NCBI GenBank assembly: GCA_963700635.1
Contig: CAVOYH010000004.1
Coordinates: forward strand, 736,001-800,000
DNA: 64,000 bases
DNA from: an uncultured Bacteroidota bacterium
GTDB taxonomy: Bacteria > Bacteroidota > Ignavibacteria > UBA10030 > UBA6906
Direction: 5' to 3'
In this document: one piece after another, positions 39,234-45,962 of the stretch
How positions within the stretch are numbered: position 1 is the stretch's first letter
Layout of the letters: each line of letters begins with the position of its first letter
The notes under the pieces: generated by a model
What the model was told of the DNA's origin: nothing
Database searches by the model: none
What the model saw: the letters and a program-made list of their open reading frames with translations, nothing else
Program-made: the position numbers and the translations under genes

Positions 39234-39971
39234 ATGGCGCGGAAAGCGGCAACAGAACGGAGCGTGGATCTGGGGTTTGACCGGGATGAAGTAAAGACCC
39301 TCCGGGACCGGATCGCGCAACGGATACGGGCATCGATCATTGACGGGCGGATCACGCCCGGGCAGCGGCTCGCGGAACCGGACCTGTCGCTGCAACTGGG
39401 TGTCAGCCGTACGCCCCTGCGCGAGGCGCTTCTGCAGCTTGATTCCGAAGGGTTTGTGCGCGTCACGCCCCGACGCGGGGCGGTGGTAAGCGCGCTTTCC
39501 CATGAAGATGCGCACGATACCTATCAGGTCAAAGGTGTGCTCGAGGCCTTCGCAGCGCGGCTGGCGTGCGAGCGGATGACTGCAGCCGAGCTGAAACAGC
39601 TGCGCGGGATCCACGACCATATGCGCCGCATCGCCGCGGCCCGCACAAAAGACGTCAAAGCCATCCTCCAGAGTAACGCAGAATTCCATCAGGCCCTCAG
39701 CGACGCGTCGGGGAACGAAAAACTTGCCGGCTACATCCGTTCATTGCGCAGCCAGGCACTCCGCTATAATTATATCTATCTGTCCGTCCTCTCACATCTT
39801 GCCACCTCGATGAAGGAACATGACCGTATCCTTGCCGCACTCCAGAAACGTGACGGTGCGGGCGTGGAACGCCTCGTGCGCGCCCACGGCGAAGCAGCAG
39901 GGAAGGCGCTCTGCGCCTACATCGACCGGCATGCGGGAGGGAACCATGTCAACGATCGTCACGGGAGTTGA
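39234..39971 (+). CDS. GntR (FadR/FCD subfamily) transcriptional regulator
   Basis: PGQRL.E...LGVSRTPLREAL; FCD N.EFH...EH. Confidence 0.93.
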   Translation: MARKAATERSVDLGFDRDEVKTLRDRIAQRIRASIIDGRITPGQRLAEPDLSLQLGVSRTPLREALLQLDSEGFVRVTPRRGAVVSALSHEDAHDTYQVKGVLEAFAARLACERMTAAELKQLRGIHDHMRRIAAARTKDVKAILQSNAEFHQALSDASGNEKLAGYIRSLRSQALRYNYIYLSVLSHLATSMKEHDRILAALQKRDGAGVERLVRAHGEAAGKALCAYIDRHAGGNHVNDRHGS

Positions 39972-39973
39972 AA

Positions 39974-43093: not shown

Positions 43094-44898
43094 CTCCCCA
43101 CAACATCCTGTGTGTTCCGCTGGATCCGGTGCACGATGTCGGAATCAAGATCATCCGGAACGCTCTGGCCCGGAGGGGGCACACCACAGTGCTGCTCTCT
43201 CCGGACCTCAGCATGGAAGCTGTGGTCCGGCGGGCGGCGTCAGAGCATTTTGACGACATCCTTGTCAGCCGCACGCTCGGGTATGGTGTGGCGGAGCTGC
43301 TGGGGCGTTTTGTGGATCTGCTGGATGCGGCCGGTGTACGTTCGGGCAGCCGTGTGATTCTGGGGGGAAAGGCAATCACTCCGGAACTGGCTGCCGAGCT
43401 TGGCTTCGACCGTGGGTTCGACGAACATGCTGCCATTGAGGATATCGTGGCGTATGTGGAAGGGCGGCGGAGTGAAGCCGGAACCAGGGAGCGGGTGCGA
43501 GTAAAGCCGGATATCACTGCCGGGTACACCTATGAGGTCCATGATCCGGTCGTGCGTGAGTATCTGGATGAGATTGTTGCAAAACTGCTCCGATGGGCTG
43601 AAGGGAAGAGTACTCCCGGCGTCCGCCGGATGAAAGTACGCGAGGAACTTCTGAAGGCGCCCGATGCAGCCGCGGCGGAGCGATTGGAGAAAGAATACGC
43701 CTCGTACTGCGATCCCGTGATTCTCGAAGCGCGCCGGTCGGGCGTGCTTCCGAAGGGAGTGCGGAAGATAAACCCGCACGAACTTGAATCGGTGCGTGCC
43801 GGGCTCCGGACACGGAGTGCTTACAGGCCGGTTTCCATACGGCATCAGACGGAGAAGCCCCTGGTGTTCAAGTTTCTGGGGAGCGGTTGTCCGTTGATGG
43901 ATCTTGTGCACGGGAAAGTGTGTGAGCGGTGGGGGATAGACGGGTTTCTGGTGATCAATCCCTCATGGGAAGCGCGTTATGAAGGGTTGATGGATGGGTT
44001 GTTGACGCATGAGCAGGACGGCACGATAACTTCCTTTGAGAATGTCCGGTTGATGCGGGAGCTGTTGGATCCGGCAACCTTGCTCACTGTGCGAGCGCAC
44101 CGCGGGCTGAATACGCCCGAGACCGTACTGCTTGCGGGGAGTGCCGGTGCGGAGATGACGAAGATTGATCTGGTGTACGGCTCGCTCGGGGCCGGCACCG
44201 ACCCGGAGCGTCTGGCTGTGGACGGGATCGAGGCGATGCGTCTGGCGGCGCGGTTCGGTATGCCCTTTGATATACCGGGGAACGACGAACTCAGCGGCGT
44301 GCCTGCCTGGAAGACTCTTGCCGGGCTTCTTATTAATGTGCACCTGGGGCGTGCCCTTGGAGCGCGGCCCATACTAAAACCGCTGTTCTGTTACGGTCCG
44401 CACATCGTCATTAACGGACTGATGGATCAGAACTTTGTGGATTACAATACCGCGAAGATACGTGTGCTCCGGGCTCTTGTGGACTCTCCGATCTGGCCCG
44501 GGGAGCCCATTGCATTTATGACGCAGAGTGAAGACCGGGTACAATCGGCGAGTGCGACTGCCTTTCATGCTGCGCTTGCTGTGGCACTGGGTGTAGATGC
44601 CATCACCATCGCATCCACTGATGAGGCCTACTCGCGCGGACCGATATGTCTGGCCTCGCGGCTTGACAGTATTCAGGGTGTGCGCGAAGGAGCGCGGTTT
44701 CTGGGCGATGCATCGTTCACGCCGACTGCGGCATCGGAGCGTACGGCCGGGGAGATGACAGAGAAGATCCGGGAGACGCTTGACCGGGTGCGGCAGGCGG
44801 AGCATCTTCCGGCTGCCATCCATGCGGGTTTGCTGGGTGACAGTGAAGATGGGGCATATCCCGGGACATTCGGGAAAGGAACGGTTGTCGGGGCGTGA
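43090..44898 (+). CDS. cobalamin-binding protein, putative B12-dependent mutase
   Basis: N-terminal DPVHDVG...SRTLG...LGG base-off/His-on motif, then a ~450-aa unassigned domain. Confidence 0.75.
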   Translation: MTPHNILCVPLDPVHDVGIKIIRNALARRGHTTVLLSPDLSMEAVVRRAASEHFDDILVSRTLGYGVAELLGRFVDLLDAAGVRSGSRVILGGKAITPELAAELGFDRGFDEHAAIEDIVAYVEGRRSEAGTRERVRVKPDITAGYTYEVHDPVVREYLDEIVAKLLRWAEGKSTPGVRRMKVREELLKAPDAAAAERLEKEYASYCDPVILEARRSGVLPKGVRKINPHELESVRAGLRTRSAYRPVSIRHQTEKPLVFKFLGSGCPLMDLVHGKVCERWGIDGFLVINPSWEARYEGLMDGLLTHEQDGTITSFENVRLMRELLDPATLLTVRAHRGLNTPETVLLAGSAGAEMTKIDLVYGSLGAGTDPERLAVDGIEAMRLAARFGMPFDIPGNDELSGVPAWKTLAGLLINVHLGRALGARPILKPLFCYGPHIVINGLMDQNFVDYNTAKIRVLRALVDSPIWPGEPIAFMTQSEDRVQSASATAFHAALAVALGVDAITIASTDEAYSRGPICLASRLDSIQGVREGARFLGDASFTPTAASERTAGEMTEKIRETLDRVRQAEHLPAAIHAGLLGDSEDGAYPGTFGKGTVVGA

Positions 44899-45962
44899 TC
44901 ATACTCGGGATTGCCGGAACCGCAAAGAACACGGGGAAGACCACCACGCTTGCCGCGTTGCTGGAAGAGGGGCGCCGGAGGGGGATACTGCCCGGTTTGA
45001 CAGGGATCGGGTATGACGGCGAAGAGCGGGACACAGTAACAAACCTTCCGAAGCCCCGGATTCAGGTCTATCCGGGCATGGTAGTAACCACCTCAGAACG
45101 ATGTCTGCATGTATCCACGGCACGCGGCGAGATCCTTTCGCGCACCGGTTTTTTTACGCCGCTGGGTGAGGTACTCATCCTTCGTATAACGAAGCCCGGG
45201 CTACTGGTAGTAGCCGGTCCGAATAAAACCGCGGACCTTGCGGCAGTATGTTCGGAGATGGAGGGGGCGGGAGCGGGGATGGTGTTGGTGGATGGATCGT
45301 TAAACCGGATAGCGCCGTTCAGCATAGCGCATGGTGTAGTGTTTGCCACCGGGGCTGCGCGATCGACGGATGTGGAGGTAGTGCGGAGGGAGGTCCTCGG
45401 AATAGAGTCTATTTTTTCGTATGGAACGGCATCAGTCAAGACTCCGGCGCACCGTGGGATCTGGATGGCAGGGGAAGAGGTCAGGGTACATCTGGCGGGG
45501 AGTGGAGTGCACGGGAGGGCGGACATCGAAAACGCGGTAGGCAAGTTGCCTGCTGGAGTCAGATCGATGGAGATATCGGGAGTTATAACAGAGGAAGGAT
45601 TGCGGGCGCTTGCGGGGACAGCGCAGCGTGGGGAGACAGGTGGGGCGTTGATACTGGACGATCCGATAAAGGTGTTGATTGGAGGGGATCCATCGGTAAT
45701 GGCGGGTCATCTTCGGGCATGTGCGGATGCCGGCCTGTCGCCATTGTACCGGGCCCGTCCGTTGTTATGCGGGATCACGGCCAATCCTTCGTACCCGTCG
45801 TTTGACGGGACAGTATATACTCCGGCCAGAGTTGAGGGTGAGGCATTTGTAGGGAGGATCAGGGAAGGTGTTGGGGTTCGTGTGTATGATCTGGTAGGGG
45901 AGGGTGGGGTTGGGGAGTTGTTTGATTCGTGTCTTTCTGCAGTGCAGTTTCCGCAACAATAA
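44895..45962 (+). CDS. KamB-like P-loop protein (aminomutase reactivase subunit-like)
   Basis: GTAKNTGKTT, TGIGYDGE..D.VT..PKPRI, TPLGEV, VDGSLNR, ATGA. Confidence 0.7.
   Translation: MIILGIAGTAKNTGKTTTLAALLEEGRRRGILPGLTGIGYDGEERDTVTNLPKPRIQVYPGMVVTTSERCLHVSTARGEILSRTGFFTPLGEVLILRITKPGLLVVAGPNKTADLAAVCSEMEGAGAGMVLVDGSLNRIAPFSIAHGVVFATGAARSTDVEVVRREVLGIESIFSYGTASVKTPAHRGIWMAGEEVRVHLAGSGVHGRADIENAVGKLPAGVRSMEISGVITEEGLRALAGTAQRGETGGALILDDPIKVLIGGDPSVMAGHLRACADAGLSPLYRARPLLCGITANPSYPSFDGTVYTPARVEGEAFVGRIREGVGVRVYDLVGEGGVGELFDSCLSAVQFPQQ

Follow-up and report, generated by a model that had tools for sequence, protein, structure and literature searches.

A seven-gene operon of an uncultured Ignavibacteria bacterium encodes a putative cobalamin-dependent protein of 602 residues which, judged from its sequence and structure model, is a KamE-like B12-binding domain fused ahead of a KamD-like TIM barrel. 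We give a probability of about 0.45 to the reading that this is an accessory operon around a radical isomerase, encoding an inducible pathway that would act on meso-diaminopimelate (meso-DAP), or an oxo-derivative of it, by way of an undescribed adenosylcobalamin (AdoCbl) rearrangement.

The operon lies on the + strand at 39234-45962 of the window (the whole 64,000-nucleotide stretch of DNA that we analysed), and a promoter-like site and a palindrome precede it:

39167..39195, + strand: promoter-like site, TTGACT, 17 nt, CATATT, with TG before the second hexamer (consensus match only)
39201..39224, no strand: perfect 24-bp palindrome with halves CTGTATATTGTA and TACAATATACAG, candidate operator (sequence symmetry)
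39234..39971, + strand: GntR-family regulator with FCD domain, 245 aa (PF00392 8.7e-19 and PF07729 4.5e-27, both over cut-off)
39974..40897, + strand: meso-diaminopimelate D-dehydrogenase (Ddh), type II, Symbiobacterium type (TIGR01921, 303.7 bits, cut-off 180.6)
40894..41352, + strand: DUF6917 protein, 152 aa (PF21891 1.9e-40)
41367..42833, + strand: divergent fold-type-I PLP enzyme, 488 aa (weak family matches; fold)
42839..43093, + strand: s84, 84-aa small subunit candidate (no family match in profile searches; conserved adjacency; predicted docking)
43090..44898, + strand: 602-aa large subunit, with B12 Rossmann domain, linker helices and KamD-type TIM barrel (PF02310, Foldseek, hhalign)
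44895..45962, + strand: KamB-family P-loop NTPase, 355 aa (NF052386, 189.7 bits, just below the cut-off of 210, aligned over its full length)

The initial annotation had described a tightly coupled operon of these seven genes, and all seven are co-oriented and as described, with overlaps or gaps of at most 14 nt. From the sequence, the regulator's stop codon (39969-71) is followed by the Ddh start codon at 39974; ATGA overlaps join Ddh to the DUF6917 gene and s84 to the B12 gene, and a GTGA overlap joins the B12 gene to that of the KamB-like protein. The remaining junctions are 14 nt (DUF6917/PLP) and 5 nt (PLP/s84), the PLP gene most likely starting at ATG 41367, which gives 488 aa as in its homologues. 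No transporter gene is found among the seven, which is unusual for a catabolic operon. The genes are conserved together, the set being complete in every locus of the class where the DNA reaches.

The B12-binding domain PF02310 matches residues 13-114 of the 602-aa protein (36.7 bits, cut-off 32.1). In an AF2 model (pLDDT 83.6), the B12 Rossmann domain spans residues ~1-125 and, after the linker helices, a KamD-type barrel spans ~255-600. Foldseek ranked KamD chains first (1xrs_A, E 3.6e-18, TM 0.64 on target; then 8t0v_A, 1.2e-16, and 9q1a_C), followed by OraE (3kp1_A, 1.6e-11) and MutE (3e-9), and hhalign against a KamD from the same phylum gave a probability of 59%. The Lys-AminoMut_A family PF09043 scored 14.9 bits, under its cut-off of 25, and precomputed matches to it occur in 3 of 120 homologues among the matches listed. 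Thus the part of the protein beyond the B12 motif, which the initial annotation had not been able to match to these enzymes, matches KamD and OraE by fold and profile, though below the Pfam threshold, and the suspected kinship to AdoCbl aminomutases is borne out. The B12 domain itself is closest to KamE (E 1.1e-14), including the VSxT and GG motifs.

The unusually spaced cobalamin motif DPVHDVG reported earlier recurs in 35 of the 36 homologues aligned; H15, D16, V17, G18 and K20 are invariant in all 36 and D12 is kept in 35, so that the putative His-ligand motif reads DxxHxxG, with its Asp one residue farther away than in DxHxxG. Database entries name the family only 'cobalamin-dependent protein' or give it an automatic MCM label, in agreement with the view that it is uncharacterised, and at 90% identity its members form more than 1000 clusters, spread over at least two branches. 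The host genome has the capacity to adenosylate cobalamin (PF01923), and 10 B12-binding domains are encoded in it.

In every locus with room for it, in both branches, a homologue of s84 immediately precedes the B12 gene. Three complex-prediction runs of s84 with the barrel scored 0.85, 0.83 and 0.20 (median 0.83; best control 0.00; partner pLDDT at least 72; run agreement at least 0%), a value of 0.83 being one that 116 of 157 solved complexes attained, against 2 of 215 mismatched pairs, and memory of solved KamDE and OraSE complexes may have aided the two high runs. The predicted contacts involve invariant residues of both proteins, and s84 is predicted to be a small subunit on the rim of the barrel's catalytic face. 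By hhalign, s84 resembled OraS with a probability of 0.3%; its profile gave 5% against KamE and 20.9% against another KamE-like protein.

The KamB-like protein had been recognised as such at the outset, and its full-length family match, slightly under the cut-off, supports this; its Walker A motif, GTAKNTGKTT, does not vary among the nine sequences compared, which come from both branches. No KamC (NF052383, a MutS-like ATPase) scored over the cut-off of 300 bits in the genome, the best matches, at 195.8 and 177.2 bits, falling in open reading frames that span 801 and 879 aa. The KamB-family NTPase probably loads or repairs the cofactor and is a candidate chaperone or reactivase.

Ddh was initially called a short DAP-dehydrogenase-like enzyme. 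It is a type-II DAP dehydrogenase, and not a short one: it aligns over its full length to solved DAP dehydrogenases (3wb9, E 6.7e-120; 3bio, 5.9e-99). For the Symbiobacterium thermophilum enzyme (StDAPDH), a passage of PMC7424261 lists D92, W121, F146, S151, M152, G153, T171, R181, H227 and N253 as contacts to meso-DAP. By alignment to 3wb9, nine of these ten listed residues are kept in Ddh, F146 being replaced by Tyr; among those retained are T171, R181 and H227, which hold the distal L-amino-acid end of DAP. The dehydrogenase therefore points to meso-DAP, which had been named as a possible substrate. Symbiobacterium-type enzymes also aminate simple 2-keto acids, according to the abstract of PMC7084900, so Ddh could serve another D-amino acid. 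Because dapF and lysA lie elsewhere in the host genome and only 12 of 151 class genomes carry Ddh (the other 139 do not), Ddh is not the housekeeping route.

The DUF6917 gene stands directly upstream of the PLP gene in all 11 class loci with room, and near it in all three such Firmicute loci. A model of the PLP enzyme (pLDDT 86.3) matched only fold-type-I proteins, with SepCysS, Cap15, DgaE and SufS all at about 1e-11, and no subfamily passed its cut-off (Aminotran_5, 16.9 against 21.5 bits; the DgaE family, 27.8 against 385). Across 30 sequences, neither K292, which lies within SMDKATG, nor D266 varies; we infer that K292 is the Schiff-base lysine and, from the usual spacing, that D266 faces the pyridine nitrogen.

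Of 401 genomes of the phylum, 10 carry the B12 gene, and these 10 are also the ones with the PLP gene. In the class, the B12 gene accompanies Ddh in 11 of the 12 genomes that have Ddh, and all nine B12 carriers tested have Ddh. Thirteen of the 16 genomes with both Ddh and the B12 gene have them on one contig, at a spacing of 2.2-3.5 kb in the 12 same-contig genomes whose B12 match is complete. Ddh is dedicated to the operon in the host class and, on the basis of this strict co-occurrence, the B12 enzyme works there with Ddh and the DUF6917/PLP module. The Firmicute branch keeps the regulator, s84, the B12 enzyme and the KamB-like NTPase. Ddh was found in none of its 24 loci, 10 of which have at least 6 kb upstream, and the PLP module lies within 9 kb in only two of those 10; in three of five annotated loci, a Rid-family imine deaminase adjoins the module. 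The link to DAP therefore holds for one class only, and the core enzyme's substrate need not be DAP-derived.

GntR/FCD regulators mostly control catabolic operons. The regulator's reading frame is also open from TTG 39186; the positions of the promoter-like site, 39 nt 5' of the ATG, and of the palindrome between that site and the start codon favour ATG 39234, the start assigned originally. In all 10 class loci examined, the palindrome core, with halves GTATATTGTA and TACAATATAC, or a near copy of it precedes the regulator; this is the case in 0 of 6 Firmicute loci. The conserved 24-bp palindrome is likely the operator of the GntR/FCD regulator, and the operon is probably repressed by its own regulator.

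In the pathway that we favour, the FCD regulator would leave the palindrome and the catabolic genes would be induced. Ddh would then interconvert meso-DAP and L-2-amino-6-oxopimelate, the B12 enzyme would carry out a 1,2-rearrangement of the seven-carbon amino-dicarboxylate skeleton, and the PLP module would eliminate from or cleave the product to give an imine or a 2-oxo acid.

The same genes could run in the direction of salvage or biosynthesis, which we consider unlikely. From a precursor, the B12 enzyme and the PLP module would make L-2-amino-6-oxopimelate in its imine or 2-oxo form, which Ddh would reduce to meso-DAP in the host class and which Rid in Firmicutes would hydrolyse to the oxo acid, entering the lysine pathway as tetrahydrodipicolinate. 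A 2-imino or 2-oxo acid is the substrate of each enzyme, so Ddh and Rid could be alternative ways of ending the route, and the lack of a transporter would fit. In most class loci asd, ask, metX and metY (the last matched in 9 of 12 loci) stand beside the operon, but the met neighbours are served by a SAM riboswitch of their own and have not been retained in the Firmicute branch. Salvage is further disfavoured by the catabolic leaning of GntR/FCD regulators, by the presence of dapF and lysA in the genome and by the patchy distribution of the operon (10 of 401 genomes); no candidate precursor is known.

The residues that would hold PLP bear on a second alternative, a true PLP-dependent aminomutase for another lysine- or ornithine-type diamino or D-amino acid. 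KamE sequences (8t0v_C; P0197, P0207, P0210) read H-T-V/I-G-...-M-K, with the PLP-binding Lys at His+11 of the B12 domain. This Lys is absent in 36 of 36 homologues, in which the position is the invariant Leu L26. In the barrel, KamD and OraE share five residues around PLP (KamD R184, S189, S238, Y263, R268; OraE R109, S114, S162, Y187, R192); these align with N290, A295, R338, Y363 and A368 of the 602-aa protein, a mapping that three alignments gave alike, each at ~15% identity. Only one of the five contacts is kept: the stacking Tyr, as invariant Y363, is followed by an invariant glycine-rich loop, and both Arg and both Ser are replaced. As the aminomutases' lock is lost, the reaction may be something other than the shift of an amino group.

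A PLP aminomutase would have to hold its cofactor otherwise, for instance through K358 and the invariant YGSLGAGT loop, and Ddh would act on the product as a D-amino-acid dehydrogenase of broad range. The nearest folds (KamD and OraE), the kept Tyr with its loop, and the acceptance of other keto acids by StDAPDH-type enzymes would suit this. So would the make-up of the cluster, in which small and large mutase proteins, a dehydrogenase, and small and large PLP proteins parallel OraSE, Ord and OrtAB of the ornithine pathway. We nonetheless think it improbable, given the loss of the His+11 Lys and of the two Arg and two Ser, the absence of a racemase from the operon, and the retention in Ddh of T171, R181 and H227, the distal-end residues. 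A corrinoid methyl carrier or methyltransferase component is hardly credible: weak matches to MtgC (28.5 bits, cut-off 370) and other corrinoid proteins span the B12 domain only, whereas the remaining 470 residues fold as a KamD-type barrel, the protein is partnered by a KamB-family NTPase and no methyltransferase genes lie nearby.

Returning to the DAP pathway, we suggest tentatively, and with some doubt, that s84 and the 602-aa protein form a new type of AdoCbl isomerase lacking the PLP-Lys tie to the B12 domain, either PLP-free or with PLP inside the barrel, which would catalyse an undescribed rearrangement of meso-DAP or L-2-amino-6-oxopimelate. Of the original proposal of a new radical rearrangement route for a diamino or D-amino acid, the aminomutase kinship stands and Ddh points to meso-DAP in one class; the lost PLP lock speaks against the enzyme being a PLP aminomutase.

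Diaminopimelate is a large pool of nitrogen in bacterial necromass, and we found no direct catabolic route for it described in the open literature; with Ddh and the DUF6917/PLP module, the pathway would, if true, be the first dedicated DAP breakdown route that bypasses lysine. The strict tie to Ddh in one class offers a concrete first substrate to test. To our knowledge, only about a dozen AdoCbl isomerase reactions are known, so a widespread additional family would mark a real gap in the map; having an aminomutase fold without its cofactor lock, the family could reveal how B12 radical enzymes move from one chemistry to another.

Among the closest known systems, KamD/KamE with KamB/KamC (D-lysine/L-beta-lysine 5,6-aminomutase; 1xrs, 8t0v, 9q1a) shares the KamD-type barrel, the KamE-like B12 domain, the KamB-family neighbour and the stacking Tyr. 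Here, however, the domains are joined in one chain in permuted order, led by the B12 domain, the motif is DxxHxxG, Leu replaces the PLP Lys, R184, S189, S238 and R268 of KamD are replaced, an 84-aa subunit of no known family is added, and KamC was not found in the genome. The OAM_dimer domain (PF16554), found in KamE/OraE of loci L037 and L038, is absent from both the 602-aa and the 84-aa protein. OraS/OraE (D-ornithine 4,5-aminomutase, with Ord and OrtA/OrtB) likewise pairs small and large mutase proteins clustered with an amino-acid dehydrogenase and a PLP step, and OraE is the second-best fold match. Its B12 domain is C-terminal, whereas that of the 602-aa protein is N-terminal; the dehydrogenase here is a DAPDH rather than Ord (NF040740, 19.4 bits against 400), and the PLP enzyme is of fold type I, unlike the PALP enzyme beside OraS and OraE in L038. 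Glutamate mutase MutS/MutE (1cb7, 6h9e), the third-best fold match, is an AdoCbl carbon-skeleton mutase built from a B12 domain and a TIM barrel, and it rearranges its amino-dicarboxylate substrate without PLP; KamD matches better, the Pfam and NCBIfam matches are marginal, and no MutL-type reactivase (PF13941) occurs in the genome. Finally, Ddh resembles the S. thermophilum meso-DAPDH (3wb9) over its full length and in nine of the ten DAP contacts, but in the class it is confined to the operon and is not a general enzyme of the lysine pathway.

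In the window, seven ORFs with the same orientation lie between 39186 and 45962, and family scans of each product bore out the seven-gene list of the initial annotation. The operon (39234..45962, plus strand) and the region in front of it contain the following features, with the genes in order.

Features of the operon and its upstream region
38985-39098, minus strand: SAM riboswitch (RF00162, 75.6 bits), in front of metY
divergent from the operon, minus strand: metY (TIGR01326, 680.9 bits)
39167-39195: promoter-like site, upstream of the regulator ATG at 39234
39201-39224: perfect 24-bp palindrome, between the promoter-like site and the regulator ATG
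ATG at 39234, plus strand: GntR and FCD regulator, from the family scan
plus strand: meso-diaminopimelate (meso-DAP) dehydrogenase, Ddh (TIGR01921, 303.7 bits; cut-off 180.6)
plus strand: DUF6917 protein (family match 1.9e-40)
plus strand: PLP-type protein (weak fold-type-I matches only)
plus strand: 84-aa protein, s84 (without family)
plus strand: 602-aa B12 protein (PF02310 at residues 13-114)
plus strand: KamB-like protein (NF052386, 189.7 bits; cut-off 210; alignment 5-332 of 355)

The genes of the operon meet in ATGA or GTGA overlaps or are separated by spacers of 2, 14 and 5 nt. We place the end of the operon at 45962 because G+C falls downstream of it, from about 0.58-0.60 to 0.50 at 46000, and because the genes 3' of it vary among related loci. 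The stretch 46000-52129 (G+C 0.50) encodes a small sigma-70 region 4 protein, a 265-aa protein without family and a 1105-aa TPR-CHAT protein, and may be a foreign island.

The core of the palindrome is present upstream of the regulator in all 10 loci examined from the class to which the source genome belongs and in none of six Firmicute loci. This conserved, operator-like element is likely to be the operator of the regulator. On the minus strand, metY is followed by metX, ask (aspartate kinase) and asd (aspartate-semialdehyde dehydrogenase). A functional tie between these genes and the operon is not supported: they have their own SAM riboswitch, which marks them as a separate methionine unit, and they are absent from the Firmicute loci. 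The long ORF 37571-39151 begins too early, since its Pfam match starts at residue 97 and the riboswitch lies at 38985-39098. No cobalamin riboswitch reached the gathering score within the window.

Wherever the DNA reaches, all seven genes are present in order, in 12 genome loci from Ignavibacteriae/Ignavibacteriota or Bacteroidota MAGs. Among 401 genomes sampled from the phylum, 10 carry the B12 gene and exactly these carry the PLP gene; they belong to one class, and in each of them the two genes share a contig. The operon is thus accessory and patchy. In G233 (C52:21840-28000), the gap between PLP and B12 genes is about 1.5 kb compared to 0.26 kb in the window, which could accommodate a further gene in addition to s84. 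The B12 gene is split in two pieces at three loci (L010, L011 and L012, about 8273-9401) and in G229 (C8:1522328-1524125, with an internal TGA); these are frameshifts, arising by assembly error or gene decay.

Of 151 class genomes, 12 contain Ddh, and 11 of these also carry the B12 gene; the assembly of the exception, G447, has a completeness of 85% and consists of 590 contigs. Conversely, all nine B12 carriers tested have Ddh (of the 10 in the phylum sample, G357 was left out). The two genes lie on one contig in 13 of the 16 genomes with both, 2.2-3.5 kb apart in the 12 of these with a complete B12 match. Given these counts, Ddh is essentially confined to the operon within the class. On this distribution, and on the presence of dapF and lysA in the source genome, we rejected Ddh as the housekeeping lysine enzyme; those two genes and the 139 class genomes that lack Ddh show that DAP and lysine synthesis are independent of it. 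A search of the source genome with one DapL model gave at best 126 bits (cut-off 364.7). The best lysA match (G000:C3:916011-917258) contains an internal TAG, and the match to a PduO-type adenosyltransferase, which the genome also encodes, falls in two overlapping pieces (G000:C4:310877-311367); frameshifts, sequencing errors or two genes may be responsible.

Ddh is close to the Symbiobacterium enzyme (E 6.7e-120). It retains nine of the 10 meso-DAP contact residues listed in PMC7424261, T171, R181 and H227 among them, and has Tyr in place of F146. These residues point to meso-DAP as its substrate. Within the class, the predicted B12 enzyme is strictly coupled to a predicted DAP-specific dehydrogenase and to a novel PLP module. 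A Protein Atlas search with DUF6917 returned DUF6917 clusters only, mostly labelled Actinomycetota.

The unusually spaced motif DPVHDVG, picked out in the initial annotation, is present in the 602-aa protein; across 36 aligned homologues H15, D16, V17, G18 and K20 do not vary, and D12 occurs in 35. That annotation could not match the rest of the protein to KamD/KamE (lysine 5,6-aminomutase) or OraE (of ornithine 4,5-aminomutase), a statement that structure and profile comparisons supersede. A sequence search of solved structures gave the KamE B12 domain (6e-7), marginal KamD/OraE matches and nothing else. The AlphaFold2 model built on the 36 aligned sequences (pLDDT 83.6, pTM 0.79) had as its best Foldseek matches three KamD structures (1xrs_A 3.6e-18, 8t0v_A 1.2e-16, 9q1a_C 6.4e-16), followed by OraE (3kp1_A 1.6e-11) and glutamate mutase E (3e-9). 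The family profile aligned residues 253-488 with a KamD encoded by a genome in this phylum (probability 59%). By this ranking and profile alignment, the protein is a KamE-type B12 domain fused ahead of a KamD-type barrel.

Among the candidates scored, 1061 relatives of the B12 protein reached E <= 0.001, and the best 120 of these are 62-86% identical to it. Among 1.8 billion cluster representatives searched, one was a divergent full-length match, at 45% identity; the other matches were fragments or covered the B12 domain. By sequence comparison, the family is tight and isolated. One 4358-aa repeat protein (P0151) matches residues 220-315 in 15 stretches (26% identity, E 7e-26), probably a compositional or repeat artefact.

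In KamE, a lysine that we take to bind PLP lies 11 residues past the ligand His (8t0v_C; P0197, P0207 and P0210). The corresponding position of the B12 protein is L26 in all 36 sequences; the lysine at His+5, K20, is a common feature of B12 domains. In the barrel, three independent alignments (HMMER to two KamD structures, a profile to OraE, and hhalign to a third KamD) agree on the mapping of five residues that presumably surround PLP.

Barrel positions in KamD, OraE and the B12 protein
KamD R184; OraE R109; B12 protein N290
KamD S189; OraE S114; B12 protein A295
KamD S238; OraE S162; B12 protein R338
KamD Y263; OraE Y187; B12 protein Y363
KamD R268; OraE R192; B12 protein A368

The residue letters at these KamD/OraE numbers agree with the alignments. 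The tyrosine alone is retained, with an invariant loop, YGSLGAGTDP, at and after it. The classical PLP site therefore seems to be gone from the B12 protein, on good but not final grounds, as the comparison is made at about 15% identity. In the 36-homologue alignment, Arg, His, Asp and Glu also account for many of the invariant barrel positions, which would suit a carboxylate-bearing substrate.

A homologue of s84 is encoded directly upstream of the B12 gene at every locus with room for it, in both branches, and 16 columns are invariant across 19 sequences. Family scans, a PDB profile search and profile comparisons with KamE and OraS detected no family for it. We considered whether s84 might supply the N-terminal OAM_dimer domain that KamE has and the 602-aa protein lacks, and dropped this idea: one KamE profile aligned in the right region (probability 20.9%), but a second aligned elsewhere (5%), OraS gave 0.3% and the PDB search nothing relevant. 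Complex predictions of s84 with the 602-aa protein, using both alignments, scored 0.85, 0.83 and 0.20 (median 0.83; best of three controls 0.00), values to which resemblance to solved KamDE/OraSE complexes could contribute. Of 157 solved complexes 116 attain this score mark, as do 2 of 215 mismatched pairs; the partners had a pLDDT of 72 or more, and agreement between runs was at least 0%. In the predicted complex, invariant s84 residues contact barrel loops 265-273, 306-309, 480-483 and 511-523. The model supports, and does not show, binding.

The KamB-like protein has a Walker A sequence, GTAKNTGKTT, that is invariant in nine of nine sequences from both branches. The canonical partner of KamB in reactivation, KamC, is a MutS-like ATPase (NF052383); at cut-off no gene for it was found in the source genome, and there was none in the annotated related loci. 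The MutL-type reactivase PF13941 was also not found in the source genome, a search that is not informative on KamC because KamC belongs to another family.

The second branch comprises 24 metagenome loci with relatives of the 45%-identical protein, five of them annotated, which we assign to Firmicutes because of nearby spore genes. Those with room all retain s84, the B12 gene and the KamB-like gene, and in the five annotated loci there is also an FCD regulator, whose DNA-binding domain is of another kind. Because they persist here, we regard regulator, s84, B12 enzyme and NTPase as the constant core. The PLP gene and DUF6917 lie at most 9 kb away in 2 of 10 loci with at least 6 kb upstream, and also in three shorter loci; the PLP protein is 66-69% identical in named Firmicutes. 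Source names of the PLP gene homologues point to Thermanaerosceptrum fracticalcis and Desulfovirgula thermocuniculi as cultivated carriers. Ddh was found in none of the 24 loci, so a link to DAP is established in a single class. A Rid-family protein adjoins the module in three of the five annotated loci (L013, L026 and L029), and three Firmicute loci have B12-transporter-like genes nearby. Downstream of its KamB-like gene, one Firmicute locus, L019 (12109-14252), encodes a class-V PLP enzyme (SufS-like, far below cut-off) and then a short-chain dehydrogenase.

We propose that the operon encodes a substrate-induced catabolic route for meso-DAP. Ddh would convert meso-DAP to L-2-amino-6-oxopimelate, the B12 enzyme would rearrange the seven-carbon skeleton, and the PLP module would yield an imine or oxo acid, whose release would account for Rid in place of Ddh's neighbourhood in Firmicutes. 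We give this reading, of which step order, direction and PLP use by the B12 enzyme are the tentative parts, a probability of about 0.45. Operation of the pathway in reverse, as salvage, is less likely, and an aminomutase acting on a substrate other than DAP is about as likely as salvage.

Searches of the open literature (subscription journals being outside their scope) returned no paper on the B12 protein family, on DUF6917, or on an adenosylcobalamin aminomutase together with diaminopimelate dehydrogenase, and nothing relevant on aminomutases with RidA, the KamB/KamC reactivase or DAP catabolism. Sequence and model together argue for an undescribed AdoCbl enzyme, predicted to have two subunits, that is related by descent to the aminomutases and accompanied by a KamB-type helper. 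It differs from KamE and OraE, which have an OAM_dimer domain that the 602-aa protein lacks, and its domain order is the reverse of that in OraE, with the B12 domain first.
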